Shown here: positions 27,737 to 62,657 of the stretch, piece after piece
Layout: every line of letters starts with the position of its first letter
Position numbering within the stretch: the stretch's first letter is position 1
From: an uncultured Actinomycetota bacterium
Lineage (GTDB): Bacteria > Actinomycetota > Actinomycetes > Propionibacteriales > Nocardioidaceae
DNA length: 64,000 bases
Direction: 5' to 3'
Assembly (NCBI GenBank): GCA_963769475.1
Contig: CAVYLX010000003.1
Location: forward strand, 7,097 to 71,096
Translations under genes and position numbers: made by a program
Notes under the pieces: model-generated
What the model was told of the DNA's origin: nothing
Database searches by the model: none
Seen by the model: only the letters and a program-made list of their open reading frames with translations

Positions 27737-27837
27737 GCCGGTTCCCTCCCCATGTCGTTGTAGTGCCGAAATTCCCTGTCAAGTATGCGACCAGCGACCC
27801 ACCTCAGTGGTGCATTGGTGGCAAACCTGGACGCCTC

Positions 27838-35302: not shown

Positions 35303-35402
35303 GGGCCCGTCGCGCAGGCCCCATGCAACACGCTGTTGATGCCTCCACCACGCCGTTGCAGCGGCTGGATAGAGGGGTGGACGGCGTGTTACATGCGCGA
35401 GG

Positions 35403-39755: not shown

Positions 39756-39791
39756 AACTCTCAGCATCGACGCCGCGCCCGACCGGGTCTG

Positions 39792-43002: not shown

Positions 43003-44068
<1,066 letters not shown>

Positions 44069-44072
<4 letters not shown>

Positions 44073-45793: not shown

Positions 45794-47286
45794 CGCTGCT
45801 CGCTCCTATCCCCGAACCAGCGTTGCTCGGCGGGCCGGACGTTGTGCCAGACGTGCTTGGTCTCGCGGTACTCCTCGAGCCCGGCCGGCCGAGCTCGCGG
45901 CCGACGCCGGACTGCTTGTAGCCGCCCCACTCGGCCTGCGGCACGTACGGGTGGTAGTCGTTGATCCAGACCGTGCCCATCCGCAGCCGGGCCGCGACCC
46001 GCTCGGCCCTTGCCGGCGTCCTGGGTCCAGACCGCGCCGGCCAGGCCGTAGATGCTGTCGTTGGCGATCGCGACCGCCTCGTCCTCGTCGGTGAAGGTCT
46101 CGACGGTCAGCACCGGGCCGAACGACTCGTCCTGGGTCACCGACATGCCGCTGGTGCAGCCGTCGAGGACCGTCGGCAGGTAGTAGAAGCCGTCGGCCAG
46201 CGCCGGGTCGTCGGGGCGGGCGCCGCCGCAGCGGAGTACGGCGCCCTCGGCGATCCCGGCGGCGACGTACGCCTCGACCTTGTCGCGGTGGGCGGCGCTG
46301 ATCAGCGGGCCGGTCTCGGCCTTCTCGTCGAACGGGCCCGCCGAGCCGGATCCGCTCGGCCCGCTCGACCAGCTCGTCGACGAACTCGTCGTGGATCGAC
46401 TCCTCGACCACCAGCCGGGCGCCGGCCGAGCAGACCTGGCCGGAGTGCAGGAAGACCGCGGTGAGCGCGATAGTCGAGCGCGACCTCGCGGTCGGCGTCG
46501 GCGAACACGATGTTGGGGTTCTTGCCGCCGAGCTCGAGGGCGATCTTCTTCACGGTGCCGGCCGCGGCGGCCATGATCGCGCTTGCCGGTCTGCGAGGCC
46601 GCCGGTGAACGAGACCAGGTCGACGCGCGGGTCCGTCGGCGAGCGGCGCGCCGGCGTCCGGCCCGGCGCCGAGCACCAGGTTGCCGACGCCGGCCGGGCA
46701 GCCCGGCCTCGTCGAGCAGCCGCATCAGCTGGATCGCGGTGTGCGGGGTGAGCTCGCTCGGCTTGAGGACGAAGGTGTTGCCGGCGGCCAGGCAGGGCGC
46801 GACCTTCCAGGACGGTCTGCAGCAGCGGGTAGTTCCAGGGCGTGATCAGCGCGCAGACGCCGACCGGCTCGTGCACGATCCGGCTGACCGACGTCGGCGT
46901 GGCCGGTGTCGACCATCGCGCCCGGCGTCCTCGGCGGCGACCCGGCCGTAGTGGCGGAAGACGCGCGACGACGTCGTCGACGTCGTACTCGCTCTCGACC
47001 AGGCGCTTGCCGGTGTCGAGCGACTCCGCCCGGGCGACGTCGGCCTTGTCGCGCTCCAGCAGGTCGGCGACCCGGAGCAGCAGGTCACCGCGCTCGCGGG
47101 CCGGACGTGCCGGCCAGGGGCCGTCGTCGAACGCGCGCGTGCGCCGCGGCGATCGCGGCCTCGGTGTCCTCCGGCCCGGCCTCGTCGACCTCGGCGACCA
47201 GGCTGCCGTCGGCCGGGCAGCGGATCTCCCGGCGGCCTCCGGCCCGAGGCGCCCACCCACTCGCCGTCCACGTAGAGCTCAGCCAC
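45790..47286 (-). pseudogene. betB: Betaine-aldehyde dehydrogenase (ALDH family), many frameshifts
   Basis: GTG 47286: MAELYVDGEWVGA...; IVHEPVGVCALITPWNYPLLQ; KKIALELGGKNPNIVFADAD; [27 protein letters not shown]; [30 protein letters not shown]. The stop overlaps the betA ATG (ATGA). Confidence 0.8.
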
Positions 47287-47315
47287 GGCGGCTCACTTCG
47301 CTCCGCAACCCCGAT

Positions 47316-47332
47316 GTTGCGCATGTCGCAAC
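47316..47332. promoter_or_regulatory. Perfect 6-5-6 palindrome GTTGCGCATGTCGCAAC upstream of betB
   Basis: Read directly, 30 nt upstream of the betB GTG. Extra CGCAAC half-sites at 47304-47309 and 47346-47351. Confidence 0.6.
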
Positions 47333-47410
47333 CGAGTGCTCTACGCGCAACCGGTCGTGTGACCTGAGAATGCAGTCGGCCGGCCGTCCGCGTCAAGGAC
47401 CCCAGATCTG

Positions 47411-49076
47411 TCACTGAGCCGCAACGCATGCGCAGGCTGCGCGCCTAGGGCCCGTCCGGGATAGCTGATCCGCGTGCTCGACCGCGCGCCGTACCGCGGC
47501 CGGCAGCGTCGACTCGAAGGTCTCCTTGCGCAGCTCCATCATCAGCGAGACGCACATGCCGATCAGCACCAGCATGAACGGCGCGGCGACCAGGATCACC
47601 AACGTCTGCAGGCGGAGAGACCACCGGCCCAGAGCAGCACCGCGGCGACCGCTCCGGTGGCGACACCCCAGAAGATGATCAGGGCGCGGAGCGGCTCCTC
47701 GGTGCCGCGCTGGCTCAGCATGCCCATCACGATCGAGGCGGCATCGGCCCCGGTGACGAAGAAGATCGCCACCAGGAAGACCGCCAGCGCGACCGTGATC
47801 GAGGCCAGCGGGAACTCGCGCAGGGTCTCGAAGAACGACGCCTCGAGCGCGATGCCGCCCTTCTCGGTCGTCGGTGGCGACCAGCCTTGGTTGAGCTGCA
47901 GGTCGATCGCCGTGCCGCCCAGGATCGCGAACCACACGAAGGACACGACGCTCGGGACCAGGATCACGTAGATCACGAACTGCCGGATCGTCCGGCCCTT
48001 GGAGATCCGGGCGATGAACATGCCGACGAAGGGGGTCCAGGAGATCCACCAGGCCCAGTAGAAGATCGTCCAGCCGCCGATCCACGAGCTCGCCTCGGCG
48101 TCGTAGACACCGGTGTTGAAGGACATCGACGGCAGCTGGCGTGAGGTAGTCGCCCATGGTCGGTGGTGAAGGTGCCGAGGATGAAGACCGTCGGCCCGAC
48201 CACGAACAGGAAGAACACCAGCAGCGCCGGCGGCGATGGCGTTCGCGTTGGAGAGGTACTTGATGCCGCGCTCGACGCCGGACACCGCCGACAGCACGAA
48301 GCACGCGGTCAGCACGGCGATCACCACGACGGCGAGCGTCTTGCTGCCGCCGCCCTCGCCGAACACGTCGTCGATGCCGCCGGTGATCTGCAGCGCGCCC
48401 AGGCCGAGCGAGGTGGCCGACCCGAACAGGGTCGCGAAGATCGCGAGCACGTCGATCGCCTTGCCCGGGCCCTCGGACGACCGGCGGCCGAGGAGCGGCC
48501 GGAAGGTCGCGGAGATCGGTGTTGCCGTAGCCCTTGCGATAGGCGAAGTAGCCGATCGCCAGGCCGATCACGGCGTACATCGCCCAGGGGTGGAAGCCCC
48601 AGTGGAAGAAGGAGTACTGCATCGACTTCTCGGCGGTCTCCGGTGACCCGCGCTCGCCCTCGCCGAGCGGCGGGGCGTTGAGGTGGGTGAGCGGCTCGGC
48701 GACGCCCCAGAACATCAGGCCGATGCCCATGCCGGTCGCGAACATCATCGAGACCCAGGAGAACGTCGAGAACTCCGGCTCGCTGTCGTCCGGGCCGAGC
48801 TTGATGTTGCCGTAGCGGCTGATCGCGAGGTAGGCGGAGAAGAGCACGAACGCCGGCGCTGGTCAGCACGAACAGCCAGCCGAAGTTCCTGGTCACCCAG
48901 CCGAGCGCCTCGGTCGTCTCTCGGCCATCTCCCTCGGGCCAGACCGCGCCGAGCGACGACGAACGCCGACCGACAGGACCGCGGCGATGCCGAACACGAC
49001 GTTGTCGATCGGGCGGGCTCGCGGTCGGCGGGCGACCGTCCGTCGGGTCCGGCGCAGGGTCCTTGATGTCGGTCAT
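47411..49076 (-). pseudogene. BCCT family betaine/choline/carnitine transporter, many frameshifts
   Basis: MTDIKDPAPDPTDG...; LFSAYLAISRYGNIKLGPDDSEPEFSTFSWVSMMFATGMGIGLMFWGVAEPLTHL...; WTIFYWAWWISWTPFVGMFIARISKGRTIRQFVIYVILVPSVVSFVWFAILGGTAI (ORFs 47411..48847, 47596..48450, 48321..49076). Confidence 0.8.
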
Positions 49077-49119
49077 CCGTCTGCTCCGTTCTCGGCCGCC
49101 CGATGTGGCCGTTGAGGCT

Positions 49120-49136
49120 ATTGCGTATGACGCTGA
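49120..49136. promoter_or_regulatory. Imperfect copy of the same operator-like motif (ATTGCGTATGACGCTGA), 44 nt upstream of the BCCT start
   Basis: 14 of 17 positions identical to GTTGCGTATGACGCAAC at 39700. Confidence 0.45.
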
Positions 49137-49231
49137 CGCTGTGCATCACACACAACACGTCTAGTCCACGTGGTTGTGCGATGCCGGTCACCTCGTCAAG
49201 GCGCAGGCGTCCCCACCCGGGTTCCGTGCGC

Positions 49232-50032
49232 TCAGCGGTGACCCCAGCCGAGCCGGTGCGAGACCTCCGCCGCGGCCTCCACGAGCAGCGGCGACGACCT
49301 CGTCGACGCCGCTCCTCGGTGAGCCGGAAGGTCGGCCCGGAGACGCTCATCGAGGCGATCACGTCGCCGTGCGCATTGCGGATCGGCGCGGCCGACCGCG
49401 GTGAGGCCGACCTCGAGCTCGTCGACGGCCAGGGCGTAGCCCTGCTCGCGGACCTGGGCGAGCTCCTCGCGCAGCTTCGACTTCTTGGTGATGGTCAGCG
49501 TGCGTGTACGCCGGCAGCGAGCCCAGCAGGTCGTCGAGCTGCGTCGTCGGTCGAGGCCGCTGAGCAGCACCTTGCCGTTGGCTGGTGGCGTGCAGCGGGA
49601 TGTGCTGGCCGACCCAGTTGTGCGGCTGCAGCGCGGAGGAGCCGGCGATCTGGTCGAGGTAGAGCGCCGACGGTCTCCGAGAGCACCGCGATGTTGACGG
49701 TCTCGCCGGTGTCGGCGGCGAGCTTGCGGCAGATCGGCCGGGCCTCCTGCACCACGTCGAGCCGGGCGCGTCGTGGCACCGGCCAGCCGGAGCAGGCCCA
49801 CGCCCAGGCGGTACTTGCCGCGGTCCTCGGTCTGCTCGACGAGCCGCGTGCGCTCGAGGGTCGCGACCAGCCGGAACGCGGTGCTCTTGTGGACGCCGAG
49901 CTCGGCGGCGATCTCGGTGACCCCGGCCTCGCCGGTGCGGGCCAGCATCTCCATGATCGTCACCGCCCGGTCGACCGACTGGACCCGGTCGCCGCGCCAG
50001 CGTCCCCGTCGGGCCTGCGGGCTGTTGCGCAT
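49232..50032 (-). pseudogene. IclR family transcriptional regulator, several frameshifts
   Basis: MRNSPQARRGRWRGDRVQSVDRAVTIMEMLARTGEAGVTEIAAELGVHKSTAFRLVATLERTRLVEQTEDRGKYRLGVGLLRLAG...; C-terminal QVREQGYALAVDELEVGLTAV. Confidence 0.75.
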
Positions 50033-50091: not shown

Positions 50092-50169
50092 AGTTCGCGC
50101 ACCAGATCCGAGGCCTCAGGTGCTGCCCACCTCGCCAGTCGAACAGCGCGACGCACCGGCCGGAGATTC

Positions 50170-51015
50170 GTGCTCATCCTCTCCTGCGCGGACCGGCCCG
50201 GCATCGTGCACGCGGTGTCGCGGGTTCCTGGTCCAGCACGGCGGCAACATCCTCGAGAGCCAGCAGTTCGGCGACCAGCTGACCGACCGGTTCTTCATGC
50301 GGATCGACTTCGCGACCGTGCCGCGGACGCCGGCGACGCCGACGAGCTGCGCGACGGCTTCGCGCCGGTCGCCGCGCGAGTTCGGGATGGACGTGCGAGC
50401 TGTGGGACGCGGGGGCGCCGTACCGGACGCTGATCATGGTCTCCAAGCACCTGCACTGCCTCAACGACCTGCTGTTCCGGGCGAGCACGGCTCGCTGCAG
50501 ATCGAGATCCCGGCGATCGTGTCGAACCACCCCGACGCCGAGCCGCTGGTGCGGCTCGTACGGCATCGAGTTCCACCACATCCCGGTGACGCCGGACACC
50601 AAGCCGGAGGCCGAGGCAGCAGCTGCTGGAGCTGGTCGACGACCTCGGCATCGACCTGGTCGTGCTGGCCCGCTACATGCAGGTGCTCTCCGACGACCTG
50701 TGCCAAGCGGCTCGTAGGGCCGCGCGATCAACATCCACCACTCGTTCCTGCCGAGCTTCAAGGGCGCCAAGCCCTACCACCAGGCCTTCGACCGCGGGGT
50801 GAAGCTGGTCGGCGCGACCGCCCACTACGTCACCGGCGACCTCGACGAGGGCCCGATCATCGAGCAGGACGTGATGCGCGTCGACCACTCCTACGACCAG
50901 GACCAGCTGGTCTCCGCCGGCCGCGACGTCGAGGCGCAGGTGCTGTCCCGCGCCGTGCGCTGGCACTCGAGTCCCGCGTCCTGCTCAACGGCACCGGACC
51001 GTCGTCTTCCGCTGA
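50170..51015 (+). pseudogene. purU: Formyltetrahydrofolate deformylase, many frameshifts
   Basis: VLILSCADRPGIVHAVS.. / GFLVQHGGNILESQQFGDQLTDRFFMRIDF (ACT domain); MVSKHLHCLNDLLFR; LQIEIPAIVSNHPD; [56 protein letters not shown]; tail RTVVFR-stop at 51013-51015. Confidence 0.75.
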
Positions 51016-51048: not shown

Positions 51049-52280
51049 TCAGACTTTCAGCATGTCCCGTCGCCGTTTGATCACTCGCTGGAGCTTGTTG
51101 AGTCTGCCCGTGTCGTAAGGCAAGTCGTCCAGCCCCGGCAGCCATAGGTCCACGCTGTCAGCGATCGCCGTGACGACCCGGCGCGCGGCTCTCTCCGGGA
51201 GGCCGAGATCGACGCCGAGATCCACGAACTTGGCACCCGAGATGTTCCCGTCCCGCTTGCCAGCCACCGATAGGGCGAGGGTGTTGTCCCCATAGGGCTG
51301 CGAGCTCGGGAGATCGTATGCAGGCGAAGGCGCCCAGCGACCGTGCTCGTCTTGAAGGATCGAAAGGTTCTTGGCGTGCATGTCTCCGTTGCCGGTGACA
51401 TACGCGAATGCAACTTGCGCCACGAAGGCACGCGCGGCCGGAAGGGGCGCGTCGCAGAGTGCGCACAAGCGGGCTAGGAGGTCCTCCGTTCGAACGCGGT
51501 ACTTCGCCTCGGGATGTAGGCCCAGCACCTGACATCCGTCCTCGACGGCCAAGGCGCGCACTGGTTGGCTGCCGGTCCGGTCGAAACGGCGCACCACCAG
51601 TCCGGGCGTGCCGGTGGCATCCCGCACCAGATCAGCATGGACTGCGTTGAGACCCGCAGTTTTCGCAGCACCGAGAAAGAAGTATTCGTTCTCTACGAGG
51701 TAGGGAAACTCCGGTGGATTGAGCTTCAGCAGGAATCCTTCCCCTGCTGCCGTCACGGGGAGGTTCAACATGGTCAGGCTGACCTTGTCCTGCACTCCTG
51801 GAATGCCAACCCGATCGACGTGGATGTTGAGGTCTGCCAGCAGCTCCTGAAAGTCGACACTGTTGAAGTTCGAGACAGTCAGCAGAGTCTGCACACTCTG
51901 TGGCTTGGTCCGTGCGGAACCACCGAGACGTCGCCTATTGCGTCTGCACCGACAGCGAGCACCATGCTCAGCTCATCGTCGGTTGAAGTCTTGATGCTTC
52001 GACGTAGGGCACTCAGGCGACGGCCCTCGGGGAGAAGCCCAGCAAAGAATGCCGGGACAGCTCCCCCTGTCGTTCTGAGCGGCACGGAGGTGACCGGGAG
52101 ACTCGTGGCCACCGGAGGTCGTCGCTCCGATATCCACCCGGGCGTGTACGTGAAGTCGATGCCCGCCGCCGTCCGCTCTAGATGCGCGGCAAGTTCTCCC
52201 TTCTTGTACACATCTGCTCGATCGATGGTCGTGTAGTCCGAAAGCTCCACGACGCCTGTGCCGATCGGTTCTTGAGTCAT
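51049..52280 (-). pseudogene. hipA: Type II toxin-antitoxin system HipA family kinase toxin, split by one frameshift near 51908
   Basis: N-terminal coupling domain ORF 51879..52280 (GELAAHLERTAAGIDFTYTPGW...LPVTSVPLRTTGGAVPAFFAGLLPEGRRLSALRR...LAVGADAIGDVSVVPHG). Kinase ORF 51049..51894 (IPGVQDKVSL...LKLNPPEFPYLVENEYFFLGAAKTAGL...VTGNGDMHAKNLSIL...PAYDL). The third frame across the junction reads TKPQSVQTLL. Confidence 0.85.
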
Positions 52281-52606
52281 GCGGTCTTCTCCGGTTCGGA
52301 GCCGGCCGACAGCTCGTAGATGGTGGAGAGTCGCGGCCCAGCTACGACTCCTGCCTCCGCCTGCCCATGCTCGACTTCGAGACGCAGCCCGAGGACGTCC
52401 AGCACAGCCAGGACCTTGTCCAGACGCACGCTCTCTTTGCCCGCCTCCAGCTCGTTGAGGAAGCGTGGCCCGACGCCAGCGAGCTCCGCGAGTTCGGTTT
52501 GGCGAAGTGAGAGCTCTTCCCTCCGAGCGGCCACCATGGCGGCGAGTATCCCCCGTTGAGCAACCCGAACGGGTAGTGGAGTTCTCGATTTCCTGCGTCC
52601 AGCCAT
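52277..52606 (-). CDS. hipB: XRE-family HTH antitoxin (HipB-like)
   Basis: MAGRRKSRTPLPVRVAQRGILAAMVAARREELSLRQTELAELAGVGPRFLNELEAGKESVRLDKVLAVLDVLGLRLEV. AGGGAGG precedes the ATG at 52606. The stop overlaps the hipA ATG (ATGA). Confidence 0.75.
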   Translation of the reverse strand: MAGRRKSRTPLPVRVAQRGILAAMVAARREELSLRQTELAELAGVGPRFLNELEAGKESVRLDKVLAVLDVLGLRLEVEHGQAEAGVVAGPRLSTIYELSAGSEPEKTA

Positions 52607-52616
52607 GTCTGCCTCC

Positions 52617-52642
52617 CTAAATTTCCCAATAGGGAAGTTTAG
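52617..52642. promoter_or_regulatory. 11-bp inverted repeat CTAAATTTCCC-AATA-GGGAAGTTTAG, 11 nt upstream of the hipB start; candidate HipB operator
   Basis: Read directly; one arm mismatch. Confidence 0.5.
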
Positions 52643-52752
52643 CGCATTTGCAGGGTCCGACACTCGCTTCGCGGCCGCTATACCTCCCGAACGGGTTGTC
52701 GAAGCTCTCGCCGCGAGCGACGATGAGGCGAGGACGCCTCGCCAACGGATGC

Positions 52753-52793: not shown

Positions 52794-53860
52794 ATCAACG
52801 AGCGGGCGCCGAAAGGCCGGACGAGAAAATTGCACCGTCGTGTTCCGCTGAGAGGTACGGCGCCGAGGGCGCGGAGGAAGTCGGCCGCGTCGAACATGGC
52901 ACCGGCCGAGGCCAACGCCCGTCGTCCGCGTACGGCCGGTCAGGATCCGCTCGACGGCTTCAACCGCCAGCGGTGCGGTGATGGCGTAGATGTCCTGACC
53001 GCTAGCGGTCGCTCGCCGCTCGACCCCGTCGGCCGTGACCACGACCTCGACCACGAACGTCTGGTCGGAGCGGCCCGACGAGTCGACCGCCTCCGGTGCC
53101 GGCGTCTCGGCACGGCTGAGGTCGCTGGCCGCCTCGACGGCCATGCAGGTGCGGACCTCCGGCACCGCCAGGTGGCTCGGCACCGTGACGACGTCGGCCA
53201 TCGTGAAGTCGGCGACCATCCGGCGGTGACCGAAGGGTGCCGGGAACTGCCAGTCCAGCTCGGTGATCGGGCCCTCGTAGTAGTCGAGGGCGCCGTGGGT
53301 GAAGCGCACCCGCTCCCGGCGCGCCGATCGTGGGACACCTTGCCGGCCACGCGGGTGCCGGCCGTGGGACGCCAGCTGCTCAGGCCGTAGGCGACGTGCA
53401 CGGAGTCGGCGGAGGCCCACTCGCCCATGGCTGCGGTCGCCAGCAGATCGCCCAGCCCGCCGAAGAACGCCATCGCCGGCACCACTGCGATCCCCGCTTC
53501 GCGAGCCAGTCGGCGTAGGTCTCGAACATCGCGGCGTTGGCCTCGATCTCGGCCGCCACGTCGACGTAGGGGATCCGCGCGCGCAGCGCGGCCTCGACCA
53601 CCGGACCACCTGTCACCGCGAACGGGCCGGCGGCGTTGATCACCGCGGCTGATCCGGCCAGCGCTCGGTCGAGCGAGGCCGGGTCGTCCACGGTGGCCGG
53701 CCGCACGATCGCGCCGGGCCAGCTCACGGCCAGCTCGTCGAGCCGCGCCTGGTCGCGTCCGGAGACGATCGGGGTGAAACCGCGCGCGACCAGCTCGGCG
53801 ACGATGAAGCGGCCGGTGTGCCCGGTCGCGCCGTACACGGCAACTGCTGGGGTGGCTCAT
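52763..53860 (-). pseudogene. Saccharopine dehydrogenase-like NAD(P)-binding protein, tandem paralog 1, several frameshifts; 3' end inferred
   Basis: ATG 53860, then a 1-nt deletion relative to paralog 2 (CCCCAGCAGTT versus CCCCAGGCAGTT). VYGATGHTGRFIVAELVARGFTPIVSGRD...AVINAAGPFAVTGGPVVEAALRARIPYVDVAAEIEAN...GIAVVPAMAFFGGLGDLLATAAMGEW...DYYEGPITELDWQFPAPFG... Confidence 0.6.
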
Positions 53861-53863: not shown

Positions 53864-54961
53864 TCAACTCTGGCCGAAGCCACCGACAGGCCACAGGCGA
53901 GCGGATAGCTCGGTCGACGAGCTCGGCACGGCGGCGGATAGGGCGCGGAGGAAGTCGGCCGCGTCGAACATGGCGCCGGCCGAGGCCAGGCCCGTCGTCC
54001 GCGTGTGCCCGGCCAGGATCCGCTCGGACGGCCTCCACCGCCAGTGGCGCGGTGACCGCGTAGATGTCCTGGCCGCGGGCCGTGGCCGTCGCTCGACGCC
54101 ATCCGCGCGTGACCACGACGTCGACCACGAACATCTGGTCCGAACGCCCGAGCGCGTCGACCGCCTCCGGTGCCGGCGTGTCCGCCCGCTGCCAGGTCGC
54201 TGCGCCGCCTCGACGGTCATGTAGGTGCGGACCTCGGGCACCGGACAGGTGGCTGGGCACGGTGACGACGTCGGCCATGGTGAACTCCGCGATCATCCGG
54301 TCGGCGACCGAGCGGCTGCCGGGAAGTGCCAGTCCTGCTCGGTGGCCTTGTCGTCGTGGTACTCGAGCGCGCCGCCGGTGAACCGCACCCGGCGGCCCGC
54401 GCGGCGCTCGTGCGACACCTGGCCCGCCACGCGGGTGCCGGCCGTGGGATGCCAGCTGCTCAGCCCGTAGGCGATGTGCGCGGACGTCCGCGGTGGTCCA
54501 CTCGCCCATCGCTGCGGTCACCAGCAGGTCGCCCAGCCCGCCGAAGAAGGCCATCGCCGGCACCACGGCCGTGCCCGCCTCGCGGGCCGCCTCGGCGTAG
54601 GTCGGCGAACATCGAGGCGTTCGCCTCGATCTCCGCCGCGACGTCGACGTACGGGATCCGCCGCGCGCAGGGCCGCCTCGACCACGGGCCCGCCCGTCAC
54701 CGCGAACGGCCCGGCGGCAGTTGATGACGGCCGCCGCTCCGGCGAGGGCCCGGTCGAGCGAGTCCGGGTCGTCCACGGTGGCCGGCCGCACCGATCACGC
54801 TCTCGGCCAGCTCCACGGCCAGCGCCTCCAGCCGCGGCCGCGTCGCGGCCGGAGACGACAGGGGCGAAGCCGCGCTCGATCAGTTCGGCGACGATGAAGC
54901 GACCGGTGTGCCCGGTCGCGCCGTAGACGGCAACTGCCTGGGGTGAGCTCGATGGCTCCAC
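53864..54961 (-). pseudogene. Saccharopine dehydrogenase-like NAD(P)-binding protein, tandem paralog 2, several frameshifts
   Basis: GTG 54961: VEPSSSPQAVAVYGATGHTGRFIVAELIERGFAPVVSGRD...GPFAVTGGPVVEAALRA...; tail TTGLASAGAMFDAADFLRALSAAVPSS... ending at 53864. Same 1098-nt span as paralog 1. Confidence 0.6.
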
Positions 54962-54992
54962 TCTTGCCGTCGCCACCGACACCCTCAGCGGG

Positions 54993-55151
54993 CTAGGCGC
55001 ACCAGCGGATGCCTTCGGTGGCGAGGTCAGCGGCAGGGTGTACGCCGGCGAGGTCCGGGCGCCGGCCCAGCAGGTCCGCGAGCGCTCGGGTGCGCTCGGC
55101 CTCACGGCGCTCCCTCACCAGGGCCGTCTCGTCACGCGATGTCGACGTCAT
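54993..55151 (-). CDS. Hypothetical small protein (52 aa), not in the ORF track (below size cutoff)
   Basis: Manual translation: MTSTSRDETALVRERREAERTRALADLLGRRPDLAGVHPAADLATEGIRWCA. High GC3. Overlaps the end of the upstream small ORF. The two may be one frameshifted gene. Confidence 0.3.
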   Translation of the reverse strand: MTSTSRDETALVRERREAERTRALADLLGRRPDLAGVHPAADLATEGIRWCA

Positions 55152-55287
55152 CTCTGCTCCCCATCCGGATGATCCACCAGGCTGCGGTGTACGCCGCAGC
55201 GACCGCCGGCAGCTCCCGGAAGCCCTCGGTGAACACGAGCGCGCCCAGATGTAGTCCCGCGATGGTGACGAGGGCGACGCGCTCCAT
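55132..55287 (-). CDS. Hypothetical small membrane protein (51 aa), apparently leaderless
   Basis: Manual translation: MERVALVTIAGLHLGALVFTEGFRELPAVAAAYTAAWWIIRMGSRDDVDIA. The ATG lies 9 nt downstream of a TATAAT box. Confidence 0.3.
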   Translation of the reverse strand: MERVALVTIAGLHLGALVFTEGFRELPAVAAAYTAAWWIIRMGSRDDVDIA

Positions 55288-55325
55288 AGTGACTTAATTA
55301 TAGCGAGTCACTCCAGTATTGCGAA
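55288..55325 (-). promoter_or_regulatory. Near-consensus sigma-70-type promoter (TTCGCA-17 nt-TATAAT) with a 7-bp inverted repeat flanking the -10 box
   Basis: On the minus strand: -35 TTCGCA (55325-55320), 17-nt spacer, -10 TATAAT (55302-55297). Inverted repeat AGTGACT (55288-55294) / AGTCACT (55306-55312). A local AT-rich patch in an otherwise 70% GC sequence. Confidence 0.5.
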
Positions 55326-55340: not shown

Positions 55341-56783
55341 TCAGTCGCCGAGCTCGGCGCGGCGGCGGATGACGTACTCCTGCAGCTCCTGGCGTGACGG
55401 CGTCGTCGAGGGTCGGCTCGACGTACTCCTCGAGCTTCTTCTGGTAGATCTCGGTCGGCTCGGTCGTTGGCGTCCTTGCCGCCGTTGCGCATCCAGCGCT
55501 CGTAGTTCTCCGACGAGGAGAGCAGCGGGCGGTAGAAGCAGGTGCGGAACCGCTCCATGGTGTGCGCGGCACCGAGGAAGTGGCCGCCGTGGCCGACCTC
55601 CTCGTGCGCGCCGAAGGCCATCGACTCCTCGTCGATCTCCAGCGGCGTGAACTCCGCCTGCATCATCTGCAGCAGCTCGATGTCGACGATGAACTTCTCG
55701 TAGCCCGCGACCAGGCCGCCCTCGAGCCAGCCGGCCGAGTGCATCACCCAGTTCGCGCCGGCCAGGAACGTCGGCATCATCGTCATCAGCGCTTCGTAGC
55801 CGGCCTGGGCGTCGGCCACCTGCGACGAGGTCAGCCCGCCGCCGGTGCGGAACGGCAGCCCGAAGTGGCGGGCGATCTGGCCGGTGCAGAGCAGGCCGAT
55901 GCCGGACTCCGGGCGTGCCGAACGTCGGCGAGCCCGACTGCATGTCGATGTTGGAGAGGAACGACCCGAAGATCACCGGCGTGCCCGGGCGGATCAGCTG
56001 CGACAGCGTGATGCCCGACAGCGCCTCGACGATCTGCTGCACGAGCGCGGCCGGGATGGTCACCGGCGACATCGCGCCCATCAGGATGAAGGGGGTGAGT
56101 ACGACGGGCTGGCCGGCCGCGGAGTACTCGAACTGCGCCTCGAGCATCCGGTCGTCCCAGCGCAGCGGCGAGTTGCAGTTGATCAGCGAGATCGTCGCCG
56201 GCGTCTCCTCGATCGCCTCCCGCGAGCCGAAGAGGATCGAGGTCATGGCCAGGGTGTCGGCGGCGTTGACGCCCGAGACCACGTTGCCCATGTAGATCTT
56301 GTCGGTCAGCGTCTGCAGCGCGTAGGTCATGTCGAGGTGGCGGCTGTCGAGCGGAGTGTCGTTGGGCTCGCAGATGATGCCGCCGGCGGAGTCGAGCACC
56401 GGGAACGTCTGGGCGAGCTTCGTGAAGTTGGTGAAGTCGTCCATGGTGGCGTCGCGGCGTACCTCGCCCTGGCGCACGAACGGCGGACCGTAGACGGCGC
56501 CGAACGCCATCGCGTCGCCGCCGATGTGGATGTTGTGCTCGGGGTTGCGGGCCTGCACGTCGAACTCACGCGGCGCCTTCGCCACCTGCTCCAGCACGAA
56601 GTCGGGATCGAGGAAGACCGTGTTGTCCTCCACGCGCTGGCCGGCCTTGCGGAACAGTTCGAGCGCGCGCTCGTCCATGAACTCGACGCCGATCTCGGTC
56701 ATCAGCTTGCGCCAGCCCCGGTCGAGGGTCGCCATCGCCTCGGCGGACAGCACCTCGTAGCGCGGCATCGTGTTGCGGAACAT
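55341..56783 (-). pseudogene. MttB-superfamily (trimethylamine methyltransferase family, non-pyrrolysine type) quaternary-amine:corrinoid methyltransferase, three frameshifts in the C-terminal third (about 55880, 55470, 55395)
   Basis: MFRNTMPRYEVLSAEAMATLDRGWRKLMTEIGVEFMDERALELFRKAGQRVEDNTVFLDPDFV...ISLINCNSPLRWDDRMLEAQFEYSAAGQPVVLTPFILMGAMSPVT...SNIDMQSGSPTFGTP. Continues in ORF 55328..55819 (ADAQAGYEALMTMMPTFLAGANWVMHSAGWLEGGLVAGYEKFIVDIELLQMM...EVGHGGHFLGAAHTMERF). Then EIYQKKLEEYVEPTLDDAV, then QELQEYVIRRRAELGD-stop. AGGAGG SD. Confidence 0.85.
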
Positions 56784-56791
56784 CGAACCTC

Positions 56792-56864
56792 CTGTGCTTG
56801 ACGCTGTGCTTGACCAGGCCCTCGCGGCATCCTAGCCTCATCATGTGGGACCACCGTTCCACAT
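56792..56864. promoter_or_regulatory. Divergent promoter/operator region between the MttB-family gene and the IclR-corrinoid operon
   Basis: Tandem direct repeat CTGTGCTTGAC (56792-56802, 56804-56814). On + strand: TTGACC (56810-56815), 17 nt, TAGCCT (56833-56838), then GTG 56845 six nt later, which implies a leaderless IclR mRNA. Inverted repeat ATGTGGGA-N6-TTCCACAT at 56843-56864 spans the start. Confidence 0.45.
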
Positions 56865-57672
56865 CATGGAACCAATGACCAGAGGTAGATCCGTGCCGAA
56901 CGGGACGAGCACCGCCGCCAGCGGGACGCAGGCGGTCGACCGCGCTGCGCTGCTGGTGTCGACGGTCGTCCACGCCGACGTACCGCTCACCTTCGCGGAC
57001 CTCCAGGAGACCTCGGGCCTGGCCAAGTCGACGACCTCGCGGATGCTCACCGCGCTGGAGCGCACCGAGCTGCTCGAGCGCAACGAGGCCGGCTCCTACG
57101 TCGCCGGTCCCCTCTTCTGGCTCTACGCCACTCGGCACGACCCGTGGGACGAGCTGGTGCGCCTGGCGCAGCCGACCCTCGAGTACGTCGGCGCCTCGAC
57201 CGGCGAGACCGTGAACCTCTCGGTGGCCCGGGGAGACCGCGTGGTCCAGGTGGCCCAGGTCGACTCGACGTACCTGCTCGGCACCCGCGACTGGACCGAG
57301 GTCGACGTGCCCACGCACTGCTCGGCGCTCGGCAAGGTGCTGCTCGCCTACGGCGTGATCGACCTCCCGGTCGGCGAGCTCGAGCAGCTGACCCCCCACA
57401 CCGTCACCGATCGCGACCAGCTGGCCCAGCAGTTCACGCAGGTCGCGCGCCGCGGCTACGCCAGCACCGTCGACGAGCTGGAGATCGGGCTCACCGGTCT
57501 CGGGGTGCCCGTGCGCGGCAGCCAGGGCGAGGTGATCGCGGCCCTGGGCGTCTCGGGTCCCAGCCCGCGACTGGAAGACCGGCACGACGAGCTCGGCCGG
57601 CTGTTGACCGAACGAGCGGAGCAGCTGTCCGGGCTGCTCCGTCGCCGAACCCGTAAGGAAGGCGTGGCATGA
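56845..57672 (+). CDS. IclR family transcriptional regulator
   Basis: Intact ORF: ...GTQAVDRAALLVSTVVHADVPLTFADLQETSGLAKSTTSRMLTALERTELLERNEAGSYVAGPLF...GYASTVDELEIGLTGLGVPV. Alternative starts at 56866, 56875 and 56893. The stop overlaps the next ATG (ATGA). Confidence 0.8.
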   Translation: MGPPFHIMEPMTRGRSVPNGTSTAASGTQAVDRAALLVSTVVHADVPLTFADLQETSGLAKSTTSRMLTALERTELLERNEAGSYVAGPLFWLYATRHDPWDELVRLAQPTLEYVGASTGETVNLSVARGDRVVQVAQVDSTYLLGTRDWTEVDVPTHCSALGKVLLAYGVIDLPVGELEQLTPHTVTDRDQLAQQFTQVARRGYASTVDELEIGLTGLGVPVRGSQGEVIAALGVSGPSPRLEDRHDELGRLLTERAEQLSGLLRRRTRKEGVA

Positions 57673-58334
57673 CACCCGAGGAAATCCTGACCGGCCTCTA
57701 CGACGAGACCCTGGTGGGCAACGCGCCGCGAGTGCTCGAGCTGACCAACGAGGGGCTCGGCATCGGCATGGAGCCCCAGACCATGCTCTTCGACGCCCTG
57801 ATCCCGTCGCTGGAGGAGGTCGGTGCGCGGTTCGAGCGCGGCGACTTCTTCGTGCCCGAGATGCTGATCGCGGGTCGCGCGATGGCCGGGGCGATGGAGG
57901 TGCTACGGCCGCTGCTCGCGGAGACCGGGGTCGAGACCATCGGCAAGTTCCTGATGGGCACGGTCAAGGGCGATGTGCACGACATCGGCAAGAACCTCGT
58001 CAACATCATGCTCGAGGGAGCCGGCTTCGAGGTGATCGACCTCGGCGTGCAGGTGGCGCCCGAGAAGTTCGTGTCGGCCATCGAGGAGCACCAGCCCGAC
58101 ATCGTCGGCTTCTCCGCGTTCCTGACCACCACGATGCCGATGTTCAAGGCCAACATGAACGCCCTCGAGAAGGCCGGCATCCGCAACACCGTGATCGTCA
58201 TGGTCGGCGGCGCCCCCGTCACCCAGGAGTACGCCGACGCGGTCGGTGCCGATGGCTACGCCGCCGACGCCTCCCAGACCGTCAAGCGGGCCAAGGCCCT
58301 GCTCCACGAGAAGCGCGCGAAGGTGCCGGCGTAA
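57669..58334 (+). CDS. Cobalamin (B12)-binding corrinoid protein (MtgC/MttC-like: helical cap plus Rossmann B12-binding domain)
   Basis: Intact ORF with the DxHxxG base-off/His-on motif: GTVKGDVHDIGKNLVNIMLEGAGFEVIDLGVQV...IVGFSAFLTTTMP...VMVGGAPV. Confidence 0.9.
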   Translation: MTPEEILTGLYDETLVGNAPRVLELTNEGLGIGMEPQTMLFDALIPSLEEVGARFERGDFFVPEMLIAGRAMAGAMEVLRPLLAETGVETIGKFLMGTVKGDVHDIGKNLVNIMLEGAGFEVIDLGVQVAPEKFVSAIEEHQPDIVGFSAFLTTTMPMFKANMNALEKAGIRNTVIVMVGGAPVTQEYADAVGADGYAADASQTVKRAKALLHEKRAKVPA

Positions 58335-59218
58335 TGGCGGCTCCGCGTCTCGAGACCAAGCTGCGCTCGGCCACCCAGGAGGTGGTGATCGGCCACGACA
58401 CCCGCTTCTGCCTGATCGGCGAGCGGATCAACCCGACCGGCCGCCGGATCTTCCAGGAGCAGCTCCGGGCCGGCGACCTCTCGGCCATCGAGCGCGACGT
58501 GAAGGCCCAGGTCGAGGGTGGAGCCGACGTACTCGACATCAACATGGGTGTGCCGCTGACCGACGAGGCCGAGCTGCTCGCCAAGGCGATCACCATGGTC
58601 CAGGAGCTGAGCGACAAGCCGATCTGCATCGACTCCTCCGTCGTGGAGGCGCTCGAGGCGGGGCTGTCGGTCTACCAGGGCCGGGCGCTGGTCAACTCCA
58701 TCACCGCCGAGGACGAGCGGATGGAGCAGATCCTCCCGCTGGTGAAGAAGTACGACGCCGCGATCATCGCGCTGCCCAACGACTCCGACGAGATCCCGAT
58801 GGAGGTCGAGAAGCGGATCGTGCTGACCCGCAAGATCATCGAGGTCGCCACGAAGGAGTACGGCATCGCCGCCGCCGACATCGTGATCGACCCGCTGGCC
58901 ATGCCGATCGGCGCCGACCAGGAGGTCGTCAACACCACACTCGAGACGATGCGCCGGATCCGCGAGGAGTTCGGCGTCAACATGACCTGCGGTGCCTCCA
59001 ACGTCTCGTTCGGCATGCCGTCGCGGCACGCTCTCGGCGCGGCGTTCCTGCCGATGGCGATGACCGCCGGGCTGACCTCCGCGATCATGGACACGCGCAC
59101 GCCCGAGATCGTCGAGGCGGTCAAGGCGGCCGACCTGCTGCTCGGGCACGACGAGTGGGGCGGCTCCTGGATCGCCGCGCACCGGGCCCGGCTGGCCCGG
59201 GAAGCCGCCACCGCGTGA
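58334..59218 (+). CDS. Pterin-binding methyltransferase (methylcorrinoid:tetrahydrofolate methyltransferase, MtgA/MtrH/AcsE-like)
   Basis: Intact ORF: FCLIGERINPTGRRIFQEQLRAGDLSAIERDVKAQVEGGADVLDINMGVP...ICIDSS...ALVNSIT...VIDPLAMPIGADQ...MTCGASNVSFGMPSR. The ATG overlaps the upstream TAA (TAATG). Confidence 0.85.
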   Translation: MAAPRLETKLRSATQEVVIGHDTRFCLIGERINPTGRRIFQEQLRAGDLSAIERDVKAQVEGGADVLDINMGVPLTDEAELLAKAITMVQELSDKPICIDSSVVEALEAGLSVYQGRALVNSITAEDERMEQILPLVKKYDAAIIALPNDSDEIPMEVEKRIVLTRKIIEVATKEYGIAAADIVIDPLAMPIGADQEVVNTTLETMRRIREEFGVNMTCGASNVSFGMPSRHALGAAFLPMAMTAGLTSAIMDTRTPEIVEAVKAADLLLGHDEWGGSWIAAHRARLAREAATA

Positions 59219-59228
59219 CGGGAACCCG

Positions 59229-61238
59229 ATGACCGGCGACGGGACCGACGGCCCGGAGATCACTCTCGCCGACCTGCCCGACATGGGCCGCGAGGGTCTG
59301 CTCGCGCCGTCCGGCACCGAGCAGGCAGCGCACGACGGCACCGGCCGGGTCGACCTCGCGTTCACCGTGCATGCCACCCCCGACGCGACCTCGGGCGCGG
59401 CGGTGCCGCCGACCCAGCGCGGCGTCCGCGTGCCGCCGGGGGTGACGGTCTTCGACTCCGCGTCGTGGAACGGCATCGCGATCGACTCCACCTGCGGCGG
59501 TCACGGCACCTGCCACAAGTGCAAGGTGAAGGTCGAGGGAGCCAGAGAAGGATTCAGCGTGCCGGTCACCCGGCACGACGTCCGCACCTTCAGCCCCGAT
59601 CAGCTCACCGAGGGCTGGCGGCTCGCCTGCCTGGTGCAGGCGACCCGCGACCTCAAGGTCGAGGTGCCGCCGCTGACGACCCGGCCCAAGGCGGCCACGG
59701 TCGGGGTCGGCCGACAGGTGATCCTGCGCCCGGCCCTGCAGAAGCGCTACGTCGAGCTCGCCGAAGCGACCCTGGCCGACCAGCGCACCGACCTGGTGCG
59801 GCTGACCGACGCGATCGACGACCTCGAGCTGACCGCCGACCTCCATGTCCTACGTCGGCTCGCGACCGTCCTCCGGGAGTCGGACTTCAAGGTCACCGCG
59901 GTGATCGTCGACGAGGCCCTGATCGACGTCGAGCCCGGTGACACGACCGATGCCCGGTTCGCCATCGCCTTCGACCTCGGCACCACCACGGTGGTCGCGA
60001 CCCTGCTCGACGTCGGCACCGGCACCCCTCTCGCGGTCACCTCGATGCTCAACAAGCAGCAGCCGTTCGGCGGCGACGTGATCACCCGGATCAGCGCCAC
60101 GATGATGGACAAGGACACCCTCGGCCGGCTGCAGGAAGCGGCCGGCGCGACCCTGGCCGAGCTCGCGGGCCAGGTCTGCCGGGAGGCCGGGGTCGACCCG
60201 GCGACGGTCTACGAGGTCGCGATCGCCGGCAACGCCACGATGACCGCGCTGGCCCTGGGCATCGACCCCGAACCCCTCGGTGTCGCGCCGTTCGTGATGT
60301 CGTCGGCCCAGCCGCCGTCCGTGCTGGCGACCGACGTCGGGCTGACGCTGCACCCCCGCGCGCGTGCCTTCTTCTTCCCCGCCCTCGGTGCGTACGTCGG
60401 CGGCGACATCGTCGCGGGCATGCTCGCGACCGGCATGGACCGCGACAAGCGCACCCGTCTCTTCATCGACGTGGGCACCAACTGCGAGATCGTGCTCAGC
60501 GACGGCGACACCATCCTGTCCACCGCGGCGCCGGCGGGGCCGGCGTTCGAGGGTGGCGCGATCCGCTGTGGGATGCGTGCCGCTGACGGTGCGATCGAGG
60601 TGATCAAGCTCGACGCCAACGCGACCGGCGACGACCCCGCGGTCACCCTCGGTGTGATCGGCGACGTCGAGCCGCGCGGCCTGTGCGGCTCCGGACTGGT
60701 CGACGCCGTGGCCGAGCTGGTGAAGGTCGGCCTGCTCGACGCCAGCGGTCGGCTGATCCCCGACGAGGACGCCAAGACGACCGCACCGGCGCTGGCCGAC
60801 CGGATGGCGAAGATCGGCGAGGAGAGGGTCTTCATCCTGCACCGGCCGACGCCCGACACCGAGCCTGCCGAGTGCGTCTACCTCTCGCAGCGCGACGTCC
60901 GCGAGCTGCAGTTCGCCAAGGCCGCGATCTCGACGGGCTGGACGCTGCTGCTCGAGCAGCTGAACCTCGAGCACCGCGACGTTCAGCAGGTGCTGCTCGC
61001 GGGTTCCTTCGGCAGCTACCTCTCCCCTGCGTCCGCTGTCCGGATCGGCCTGGTGCCGCAGCTGCCGGTGATGCGGATCGTCGCCGCCGGCAACGTGGCC
61101 GGCGAGGGCGCGAAGATGGCGCTGCTGTCGGTGCGGGAGCGTGCTGGCGCGACCACGCTGCTGGAGGAGGTGGCCTATGTCGAGCTCTCCGACCGCCCCG
61201 ACTTCAACGACAAGTTCGTCGAGCAGCTCAGCTTCTGA
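59229..61238 (+). CDS. Corrinoid reductive activase (RACo/RamA-like: N-terminal 2Fe-2S ferredoxin domain plus ASKHA ATPase domain)
   Basis: Intact 669-aa ORF. Ferredoxin Cys cluster DSTCGGHGTCHKCKV...WRLACLVQA. ASKHA blocks FAIAFDLGTTTVVATLLD, IAGNATMT, FIDVGTNCEIVL, PAFEGGAIRCGMRA, LLAGSFGSYL. Confidence 0.85.
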   Translation: MTGDGTDGPEITLADLPDMGREGLLAPSGTEQAAHDGTGRVDLAFTVHATPDATSGAAVPPTQRGVRVPPGVTVFDSASWNGIAIDSTCGGHGTCHKCKVKVEGAREGFSVPVTRHDVRTFSPDQLTEGWRLACLVQATRDLKVEVPPLTTRPKAATVGVGRQVILRPALQKRYVELAEATLADQRTDLVRLTDAIDDLELTADLHVLRRLATVLRESDFKVTAVIVDEALIDVEPGDTTDARFAIAFDLGTTTVVATLLDVGTGTPLAVTSMLNKQQPFGGDVITRISATMMDKDTLGRLQEAAGATLAELAGQVCREAGVDPATVYEVAIAGNATMTALALGIDPEPLGVAPFVMSSAQPPSVLATDVGLTLHPRARAFFFPALGAYVGGDIVAGMLATGMDRDKRTRLFIDVGTNCEIVLSDGDTILSTAAPAGPAFEGGAIRCGMRAADGAIEVIKLDANATGDDPAVTLGVIGDVEPRGLCGSGLVDAVAELVKVGLLDASGRLIPDEDAKTTAPALADRMAKIGEERVFILHRPTPDTEPAECVYLSQRDVRELQFAKAAISTGWTLLLEQLNLEHRDVQQVLLAGSFGSYLSPASAVRIGLVPQLPVMRIVAAGNVAGEGAKMALLSVRERAGATTLLEEVAYVELSDRPDFNDKFVEQLSF

Positions 61239-61248
61239 CCGGATCTCA

Positions 61249-61818
61249 TTGATCGCCTGCGGCGCCTGGTCGCAGCCGGCTGCCGAGATCGCCGCCCGCC
61301 GCGGCTGGCCCGTCGACGTACACCCCCTGCCGCCGTTGCTGCACAACCAGCCGCAGCTCATCGCCGGCGAGGTCCGGGCCCTGGCCGAGCGGTTGCTCGC
61401 CGATGGCCACCGCGTCGCGGTCGGCTATGCCGACTGCGGCACCTACGGCGCCCTCGACGAGGTCTGCGACGACCTCGGGATCGAGCGCGTGCCCGGCCTG
61501 CACTGCTACGACGTGTACGCCGGCCCGGAGCGGCTGGCCACCTTCTTCGAGGAGCAACCCGGCACCTACGTGCTCACCGACTTCCTGGCGCGCTCGTTCG
61601 CGCGGACCGTGATCCGCGAGCTCGGCCTCGACCGTTGGCCCGAGCTCCGCGAGGACTACTTCCGTTCCTACACGCGCGTGGTGTGGCTGGCCCAGAAGCC
61701 GGACGACGAGCTCCGCGCGCTCGCCCAGCAGGCAGCCGACGCGATCGGCCTCCCCCTGACCGTGGTCGACACCGGCAATGCCGGCCTCGAGAGCGCGCTG
61801 GAGTCTCTCGTCGGCTAG
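61249..61818 (+). CDS. DUF1638 domain protein (recurrent partner of corrinoid methyltransferase clusters, function unknown); start codon uncertain (TTG 61249 proposed)
   Basis: ORF 61141..61818. Its upstream part overlaps the activase gene, so I chose the first start after stop 61238. LIACGAWSQPAAEIAARRGWPVDVHPLPPLLHNQPQLIAGEVRALAERLLADGHRVAVGYADCGTYGALDEVC...LTDFLARSF... Confidence 0.7.
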   Translation: MIACGAWSQPAAEIAARRGWPVDVHPLPPLLHNQPQLIAGEVRALAERLLADGHRVAVGYADCGTYGALDEVCDDLGIERVPGLHCYDVYAGPERLATFFEEQPGTYVLTDFLARSFARTVIRELGLDRWPELREDYFRSYTRVVWLAQKPDDELRALAQQAADAIGLPLTVVDTGNAGLESALESLVG

Positions 61819-62657
61819 ACCTGGAGCCGATGCAGCCAGTCCTGTCGCCACGCCTCGGTCTCGGCGACCTGGTTGAACGTGTAGACGTGCAGGCCCGGCA
61901 CGTTGGCCTCGGGGTCTCCGAGGGTCGGCGCGCACCTGGTCAGGAACGACTCGCCGGTGAACCCGCCCGGCGCGACCAGCCGCGTCATCAGGCCCTTCTG
62001 CTTGGACAAGAACCGCGTCGAGTCGCCGACGCCGATCTTGGTGGCCATGCCCAGCAGCTTGGTCCGGTCGACCGGCCCCGGCAGGCCCACAAGCAACGGC
62101 AGCGTGATGCCGCGCAGCCGCATCCGGTGCAGCCAGTCCTTGACCACTGCGGGGTCGAAGGTCAGGTTGCTGACGACGTACGTCGCGTGCTTGCGCTTGT
62201 CCCACATGGACTGGACCGTCAGGTCGTCGTGGATCGTCGGGTGGCTCTCCGGGTAGCCGGCGACGCCGACATCGGTGAACGGACTGCCCAGCTCGGTCAG
62301 GTCCTCGAGCATCGACAGCGCGTCCTTGTAGTCCCCCACCGGGTCCGCGTCACCGCCCGGCACGAACACGCTCGTGATGCCGGCACCCTTCAGCCGGTCG
62401 ACCAGCTCGGCGAGCTCGGACCGGCCGCTGACCATCCGCGCGGCCAGGTGCGGCACGACGCTGTAGCCCTGCGCGGTCAGGCTCTCGGCCATCACGATGG
62501 TGCGCTCGAGACCCATCGACGGCGAGGCGGTCACGGTCAGCTGCACGGTGGTCGGCACCGACTCGAGCACCTTCGCCTCGATGCTCGGCGTGGGCAGGAT
62601 CTCGTAGCGGGCATGGGTGAGCAGCCGACTGACGGTGGCGCGGTCTTTGTTGCGCAT
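61815..62657 (-). CDS. Methylenetetrahydrofolate reductase (MetF-like)
   Basis: Intact ORF: MRNKDRATVSRLLTHARYEILPTPSIEAKV...TVTASPSMGLERT...SVFVPGGDADPVGDYKDALSMLEDL...VAGYPESHP...YVVSNLTFD...LPLLVGLPGPV. Confidence 0.8.
   Translation of the reverse strand: MRNKDRATVSRLLTHARYEILPTPSIEAKVLESVPTTVQLTVTASPSMGLERTIVMAESLTAQGYSVVPHLAARMVSGRSELAELVDRLKGAGITSVFVPGGDADPVGDYKDALSMLEDLTELGSPFTDVGVAGYPESHPTIHDDLTVQSMWDKRKHATYVVSNLTFDPAVVKDWLHRMRLRGITLPLLVGLPGPVDRTKLLGMATKIGVGDSTRFLSKQKGLMTRLVAPGGFTGESFLTRCAPTLGDPEANVPGLHVYTFNQVAETEAWRQDWLHRLQV

Follow-up and report, generated by a model that had tools for sequence, protein, structure and literature searches.

Can an aerobic soil actinobacterium demethylate quaternary amines through a cobalamin-dependent methyltransferase system, and are the genes that would do so intact? 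The question is raised by positions 55341-62657 of the window, the 64,000-nucleotide stretch of Nocardioidaceae DNA analyzed here (G+C ~70%), whose host is a Nocardioides-like, aerobic soil actinobacterium. At this locus, a gene of the MttB methyltransferase superfamily diverges from an operon encoding an IclR regulator, a corrinoid protein, a pterin-binding methyltransferase, a RACo-type activase, and a DUF1638 protein, and a choline/betaine island lies beside it. The assignment of the region to a cobalamin-dependent quaternary-amine:tetrahydrofolate (THF) methyltransferase system is strong, and we put at about 0.72 the probability that it is a self-contained system of the MtgBCD kind, with the frameshifts in the MttB-family gene being artefacts. 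The module is real and conserved and, judged by its sequence, probably functional. Gene identities were established with Pfam profiles, NCBIfam models with curated cutoffs, and sequence matches to the PDB, and the module comprises the following genes.

55341-56783, minus strand: methyltransferase of the MttB superfamily, non-pyrrolysine (non-Pyl), MtgB-like substrate:corrinoid type (Pfam MTTB, PF06253, E 4e-107)
56845-57672, plus strand: regulator of the IclR family, encoded by the operon's first gene (Pfam HTH_IclR and IclR_C)
57669-58334, plus strand: corrinoid (cobalamin-binding) protein, MtgC-like (Pfam B12-binding_2 and B12-binding; DxHxxG His-on motif GDVHDIG)
58334-59218, plus strand: pterin-binding methyl-corrinoid:THF methyltransferase, MtgD-like (Pfam Pterin_bind, E 1e-30)
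59229-61238, plus strand: RACo-type ATP-dependent reductive activase, N-terminal 2Fe-2S ferredoxin domain plus ASKHA ATPase (Pfam Fer2, RACo_linker, Raco_middle, and RACo_C_ter)
61177-61818, plus strand: DUF1638 protein (PF07796, E 4e-20)
61815-62657, minus strand: divergent protein resembling methylenetetrahydrofolate reductase (MTHFR), convergent to the operon (Pfam MTHFR, weak, E 1.3e-9)

This gene content, with its positions, its divergent and convergent layout, the DxHxxG motif, and the gene junctions ATGA (57669-57672) and TAATG (58332-58336), had been described in the original prediction and was confirmed by Pfam and by the sequence itself; the accompanying interpretation as a three-component system with an activase was borne out by Pfam, NCBIfam, and PDB identities. 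The raw MttB-family open reading frame (ORF; 480 codons) matches the MTTB profile only over amino acids 3-292, and the remainder lies in two other frames. Without three 1-nt insertions on the strand of the gene, at 55910 (G), 55457 (G), and 55397 (A), it encodes a 479-aa protein that has the length of its Nocardioides orthologs and is 91-95% identical to them over 100% of that length. Residues 2-479 of the repaired protein align with the solved MttB-family structure 2qne, and residues 6-479 with 9yce. Its best PDB match is 4yyc (8e-131), followed by the MtgB of Desulfitobacterium hafniense (2qne/9yce, ~1e-116). With the Pyl MttB/MttC of methanogens the module shares the superfamily fold and the type of cognate corrinoid protein, but the match to Pyl-MttB (7xcl) reaches only 2e-35, the score of 277.2 bits falls short of the 525-bit cutoff of the Pyl trimethylamine methyltransferase equivalog TIGR02369, and the repaired ORF contains neither an in-frame UAG (pyrrolysine) codon nor any internal stop.

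The corrinoid protein matches PDB entry 1y80 (6e-54) and MttC (7xcn, 2e-40). Among NCBIfam models it scores highest with MtgC_2 (199.8 bits against a cutoff of 370), with TIGR02370 also below cutoff (174.9 against 215.3), and under NCBI's cutoffs it is therefore placed in neither of these named families. The pterin-binding methyltransferase passes the NCBIfam model PRK07535 (321.8 bits against a cutoff of 259) and matches MeTr (2yck, 1e-42), MT2DH (4o0q), and the folate domains of MetH, with no match to the D. hafniense MtgA (6SJ8, 6SK4) in the PDB search at E 0.001. By sequence, the methyl-corrinoid:THF enzyme is thus of the MeTr/MetH-folate (Pterin_bind) type, like the MtgD of aerobes and unlike MtgA. 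In the RACo-type activase, each of the four Pfam domains passes its cutoff and the Cys motif CGGHGTCHKC is present together with DLGTTT/DVGTNCE; the closest NCBIfam model is AcsV (411 bits against a cutoff of 800), and RamA scores 98 against 500. The DUF1638 protein, which is the activase partner in split-MetH/MtgBCD systems (PMC12478193), likely starts at ATG 61177, so that the first 62 nt of its gene (61177-61238) also form the end of the RACo gene, read in another frame. The same overlap is found in a related locus, L002, which suggests conserved translational coupling. The MTHFR-like protein has as its best PDB match 7xg9 (S6MTHFR, a methyl-THF-oxidizing enzyme, 2.4e-32), by far its closest solved relative; ordinary MetF is matched at ~1e-6, and the protein scores 45 bits against the 294-bit cutoff of the MetF equivalog. 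We presume that it is a MetF2 analogue oxidizing methyl-THF to methylene-THF.

The original prediction held that this architecture was known from strict anaerobes only, which is outdated because an MtgBCD system together with MetF2, RamA, and DUF1638 has been demonstrated in the aerobe Ruegeria pomeroyi (PMC12478193). In strain DSS-3, betaine demethylation by MtgB/MtgC/MtgD was shown by genetics and proteomics: cells on betaine, choline, or carnitine induce MtgB (PF06253), MtgC, pterin-binding MtgD, MetF2, RamA, and DUF1638, and growth on betaine depends on mtgC and mtgD, as does methionine synthesis (PMC12478193). Colocated clusters have been described in Sinorhizobium meliloti and other bacteria, and 5% of ocean mtgC reads were assigned to Actinomycetota (PMC12478193). 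The module in the window resembles these aerobic systems, R. pomeroyi being compared by description and S. meliloti by sequence, in having a separate PF06253 enzyme, a small corrinoid protein, a pterin-binding methyltransferase, an adjacent MTHFR paralogue, and an ASKHA activase with DUF1638, and in lying, in an aerobic host, beside genes for the catabolism and transport of betaine. It differs in its actinobacterial host, in its organization as one compact divergent unit, probably under IclR control, and in that MtgE was not found nearby. In S. meliloti (CP090106.1), genes for an MttB-family protein, a cobalamin-binding protein, DUF1638, a methyl-THF:cobalamin methyltransferase, an ASKHA activase, and bmt are clustered, and identities to the window proteins are 45% for the MttB-family protein, 43% for the corrinoid protein, 48% for the pterin methyltransferase, 30% for the ASKHA protein, and 37% for DUF1638. 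The MTHFR-like protein of the window, in contrast, is unrelated to the two-part MTHFR of S. meliloti (no BLAST match). The CP090106.1 record is labelled pSymB yet has a length of 3.72 Mb, and may be a mislabelled chromosome.

Among the anaerobic systems, the MtgB/MtgC/MtgA set of D. hafniense shares with the window the three-component logic, an MtgB that is 40% identical over its full length, MtgC as the best corrinoid model, and three of four betaine-binding residues; the window module differs in its Pterin_bind-type second methyltransferase, in its aerobic host, and in the presumed routing of the methyl group to oxidation through the MTHFR-like protein and PurU. The Eubacterium limosum enzymes MtpB, MtcB, MtyB, and MthB with MtqC and MtqA are likewise non-Pyl MttB enzymes that act on acidic quaternary amines, share a corrinoid protein, and conserve R312, but by description they lack the aromatic pair formed by Y97 and F356 in MtgB, whereas the window protein keeps Y97 (PMC13080624).

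An older aerobic precedent is the CmuAB/MetF2/FolD/PurU pathway of chloromethane utilization. Like the Methylorubrum extorquens CM4 version of that pathway, the window module would combine aerobic corrinoid-dependent methyl transfer to THF with oxidation by a MetF paralogue and PurU, and it differs in the methyl donor and in methyltransferase I. CmuAB and its MTHFR are mentioned in PMC11868366.

The neighborhood of the module was annotated by running Pfam on frame-chained fragments and by tblastn with the proteins of L002 as queries. Between ~35 and 51 kb it contains a choline/betaine island and a gene for PurU, all of them frameshifted in the window.

50153-50966, plus strand: PurU, formyl-THF deformylase, frameshifted (tblastn with L002 PurU, two frames)
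49235-49993, minus strand: second IclR regulator, frameshifted (tblastn with L002 proteins; Pfam)
47414-49072, minus strand: BCCT transporter, frameshifted (tblastn with L002 proteins; Pfam)
45814-47285, minus strand: betB-type aldehyde dehydrogenase (Aldedh), frameshifted (tblastn with L002 proteins; Pfam)
44106-45740, minus strand: betA-type GMC oxidoreductase, frameshifted (tblastn with L002 proteins; Pfam)
43008-44072, minus strand: ABC ATPase, frameshifted (tblastn with L002 proteins; Pfam)
~39700-42918, minus strand: OpuAC/permease components, frameshifted (Pfam on chained fragments, approximate coordinates)
~36950-39685, minus strand: dimethylglycine-dehydrogenase-type enzyme (DAO, FAO_M, GCV_T, and GCV_T_C), frameshifted (Pfam, approximate coordinates)
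~35170-37000, minus strand: electron transfer flavoprotein (ETF) beta and alpha subunits, frameshifted (Pfam on chained fragments, approximate coordinates)

Part of this island (43008-49993) is syntenic with two related loci, L001 and L002, and the chained fragments also encode an MFS transporter and a regulator of the MarR family. An exact-sequence search with the corrinoid protein of the window gave no match. Species-representative genomes contain at least 583 related stretches, of which the best 80 were examined; the source contig is not among these. These come from Nocardioides, Pimelobacter, Marmoricola, other Nocardioidaceae, and Actinomycetota metagenome-assembled genomes at 84-98% identity, the closest having 98% protein and 91% DNA identity. 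Gene order was counted in 65 Nocardioidaceae loci of at least 19 kb each. The module is nearly constant in these loci (IclR in 64, corrinoid protein in 64, pterin methyltransferase in 62, activase in 62, DUF1638 in 63, and MTHFR-like protein in 62), and within 10 kb of it lie betB-type (60 loci), betA-type (60), PurU (56), ABC ATPase (56), formate-THF ligase (19), and BCCT (6) genes. The proposed link between the module and the choline/betaine island was thus upheld, with conserved synteny in ~60 of the 65 related genomes. Since the examined genomes all belong to one family, part of this synteny reflects common ancestry. The module is also carried by cultured strains such as Nocardioides InS609-2 and Pimelobacter simplex 3E, and by complete Nocardioides genomes such as CP060034.1 and NZ_CP087968.1.

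Which substrate would such an enzyme accept? In the D. hafniense MtgB, betaine is bound by Y97, R312, H348, and F356 (PMC13080624). Of these, Y97, R312, and H348 are kept in the window protein, in all 74 of the 74 orthologs compared, and in the S. meliloti protein, and the window protein, the 74 orthologs, and S. meliloti have in common a GWLEGG motif with a Trp at position 352. Pfam scans, which covered most of the window (24-33 kb in part, with the remainder there inspected by eye), found no Rieske-type oxygenase or homocysteine-methyltransferase domain, in agreement with the earlier statement that Rieske-type GbcAB and BHMT are missing from the window. The claim that the module is the only candidate for converting betaine to dimethylglycine stands for the window and is limited to it.

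Several observations weigh against a betaine-specific MtgBCD system. The position of MtgB F356 is occupied by Gly in the window protein, as it is in the 74 orthologs and S. meliloti; Trp352 might stand in for Phe356. An identity of 40-45% to MtgB-type enzymes leaves specificity unfixed, because MtyB and MtcB are 53% identical and yet take their names from different substrates. Scores of the corrinoid protein and of the activase fall under the NCBI family cutoffs given above. At two loci, L003 and L004, the module lies away from the bet genes and the betaine island. We found no study of an actinobacterial or Nocardioides MttB/MtgB in the searchable literature. Lastly, the signature of type-4 methyl-THF-oxidizing MTHFRs consists of L48-P49, R78, F215, C219, and P268-F269 (PMC11868366), and in an alignment with 7xg9 the MTHFR-like protein keeps two of these seven residues (P49 and F269) and differs in five (L48 to S, R78 to M, F215 to M, C219 to I, and P268 to T), so the direction of its reaction is taken from context alone.

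Some of these points would also fit the same machinery acting on another quaternary amine (proline betaine, carnitine, gamma-butyrobetaine, or a choline derivative), with betaine being handled elsewhere, for example by a Rieske GbcAB/BmoAB-type oxygenase. The Gly at F356 and the occurrence of the module without bet genes in L003 and L004 are compatible with such a substrate, as are the shifts of specificity within the MttB family at ~50% identity or more and the retention of R312, and less so of H348, in enzymes for other acidic quaternary amines (PMC13080624). However, betA and betB lie no more than 10 kb away in 60 of the 65 loci, and no second betaine demethylase was found in the Pfam-scanned part of the window. 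Y97 is kept here, and the aromatic pair is reported to be unconserved in MtcB, MtpB, MthB, and MtyB (PMC13080624). The Y/R/H plus GWLEGG pocket pattern of the window protein is also present in the S. meliloti protein whose gene adjoins those for MtgC, DUF1638, bmt, and a betaine ABC transporter. We consider a different substrate unlikely and glycine betaine, on the basis of context and three of the four pocket residues, the likely one; the caution in the original prediction that the substrate cannot be read from the sequence holds.

From homology and context we infer the following route. Glycine betaine would be formed from choline by BetA/BetB or imported via the BCCT/Opu transporters, and the MttB-family enzyme would transfer a single N-methyl group to the Co(I) of the small corrinoid protein from a quaternary amine that bears a carboxylate, with glycine betaine the most probable donor. 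The pterin-binding methyltransferase would move the methyl group from the corrinoid protein to THF, the MTHFR-like protein would oxidize methyl-THF to methylene-THF, and PurU would free the one-carbon units as formate (FolD is absent from the window); the originally suggested path from methyl-THF through the MTHFR-like protein to PurU may therefore be kept as a proposal. The other product, dimethylglycine, would pass to the nearby dimethylglycine dehydrogenase and ETF. The RACo-type activase and DUF1638 would use ATP to return inactive Co(II) to the reduced state, a need expected to be frequent in an aerobe, and IclR probably governs both divergent promoters through a conserved palindrome.

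Instead, the corrinoid protein and the pterin methyltransferase could serve mainly as the central part of a split methionine synthase like that of Phaeobacter and Ruegeria, with the MttB-family enzyme feeding methionine synthesis rather than catabolism. The mtgC and mtgD mutants of R. pomeroyi are methionine auxotrophs, and the RamA/DUF1638 pair also serves split MetH (PMC12478193). Yet a search with the S. meliloti bmt/MtgE protein, the homocysteine-binding subunit, found no homolog at a distance of up to 10 kb from the module, either in the window or in 84 related loci. The module is moreover accompanied by genes for an MTHFR-like protein, for PurU, and for the catabolism of choline/betaine (bet) and dimethylglycine, and has its own IclR regulator and predicted operator, all of which make a role in methionine synthesis highly improbable and favor the catabolic MtgBCD-type system.

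Is the MttB-family gene intact in the organism? The original prediction had named real frameshifts as something that would count against it, and we examined this by repair of the gene, by the ratio of nonsynonymous to synonymous substitution rates (dN/dS), and by the pattern of insertions and deletions (indels). The three MttB-family insertions sit at the edge of an indel-rich stretch of ~23 kb (~33100-55950) in which nearly all genes are cut by 1-bp indels and coding-like fragments seldom exceed 150 codons; PurU, betB, ABC ATPase, and BCCT are each split across several frames. Far fewer breaks are seen in its flanks (1-33 kb and 56-64 kb). Indel counts rest on L001 (88-92% identity, blastn) and on protein-level tblastn; blastn gap counts against L002 and L003 (80-85% identity) were discarded as noisy, compensating gap pairs arising in such alignments. 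Relative to L001, the 43-51 kb region has 10-25 indels per kb of a length not divisible by three, nearly all of 1 bp, with insertions about twice as frequent as deletions and about one-quarter in homopolymers, whereas 57.3-63 kb has 0-2 per kb.

A decaying cluster, in which the MttB gene and the adjacent choline/betaine island are truly inactivated in this strain, would account for the three MttB frameshifts and the dozens in the 33-56 kb island next to a clean operon at 56.8-62.7 kb, and the patchy distribution could signal one island under loss. A load of 10-25 indels per kb together with dN/dS of 0.14-0.37 in the broken island genes is, however, unlike neutral decay, and comparison with three relatives gives the MttB-family gene a dN/dS of 0.08-0.16 past its first frameshift. 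Bacterial pseudogenes are biased toward deletions, and the indels here are almost all of 1 bp with an excess of insertions. Genes outside the island are broken too: trpS (27779-28867, minus strand) changes frame near 28040-28056, leaving its conserved C-terminal ~60 residues in another frame, and with the frames joined its product aligns end to end with the solved TrpRS 6ncr (E 1.6e-90); in the RecD-RecB-RecC cluster (4700-14315, minus strand), RecB is spread over several frames, so that frameshifts occur outside the noisy stretch, and MMPL fragments are also broken. The closest available related contig, L001, from a metagenome assembly with contig_N-style names, shows similar random breaks at other positions, with its own, different frameshift in the C-terminal part of MttB and broken IclR and GMC genes. 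True inactivation is thus improbable. Because the indel load is high while dN/dS is well below 1, insertions exceed deletions, and trpS is also broken, we regard the MttB-family frameshifts as very probably consensus errors, with the gene probably intact in the organism. The ~23-kb stretch has the look of poor polishing or low coverage in a long-read assembly, which would make the frameshifts a data-quality trait of the window and not biology. A programmed frameshift in the MttB-family gene was considered as well and rejected: there are three independent +1 insertions with no common context, they are missing in all orthologs, and every gene in the stretch where they lie is broken.

The region between the divergent MttB and IclR genes contains an operator-like element.

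56836-56872, divergent MttB/IclR region: palindromic operator-like element, reading GTTCCATGATGTGGAAC..GTCCCACATGATGAGG on the MttB strand

Aligned across 15 Nocardioidaceae intergenic regions, the palindrome GTTCCATGATGTGGAAC..GTCCCACATCATGAGG is nearly invariant, and it is a probable IclR operator. Because the element extends over GTG 56845, the annotated start of IclR, translation probably begins at ATG 56866 or 56875. An Rfam scan of the window detected no cobalamin riboswitch and no other RNA family. Directly upstream of the MttB ribosome-binding site, positions 56793-56815 form a tandem direct repeat, CTGTGCTTGAC-G-CTGTGCTTGAC, where relatives have one GGTCAAG-containing copy.

The central idea, cobalamin-dependent betaine demethylation in an aerobe, was already published in 2025; new here are the host phylum, an organization for catabolism only, and an MTHFR-like partner of an unusual kind. 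Should the module work as proposed, the betaine demethylation route of marine Proteobacteria would also run in a large aerobic family of soil actinobacteria, the turnover of choline and betaine carbon and nitrogen in soil would be tied to the availability of cobalamin, and cultured, genetically approachable hosts would be at hand for testing the route. The divergent MTHFR-like protein may represent an additional class of enzymes that oxidize methyl-THF. More tentatively, Nocardioidaceae, and perhaps many soil Actinomycetota, might possess a distinct, purely catabolic variant of the system that is independent of MtgE, is controlled by IclR and the palindrome, has a pocket with Trp352 for Phe356, and uses an MTHFR without the type-4 signature; were this so, choline and betaine turnover in aerobic soils would depend on cobalamin.

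Two further pairs of genes lie between PurU and the MttB-family gene.

51052-52663, minus strand: hipBA-like toxin-antitoxin pair, consisting of a HipA_C fragment and an HTH_3/HTH_31 protein
52899-53856 and ~54296-55290, minus strand: two tandem paralogous saccharopine-dehydrogenase/NmrA-like genes, frameshifted

The saccharopine-dehydrogenase-like pair adjoins the MttB gene and is missing at that place in L001 and L002. The hipBA-like pair occupies the same position in L001, and L002 has an alpha/beta hydrolase and a formate-THF ligase there instead. Elsewhere in the window, Pfam identified MMPL, TetR, crotonase, SIR2, RecBCD, ABC-2, TauE, ECF sigma factor, RibD_C, SGNH/acyltransferase, TrpRS, hexapeptide, and adenylate cyclase proteins.

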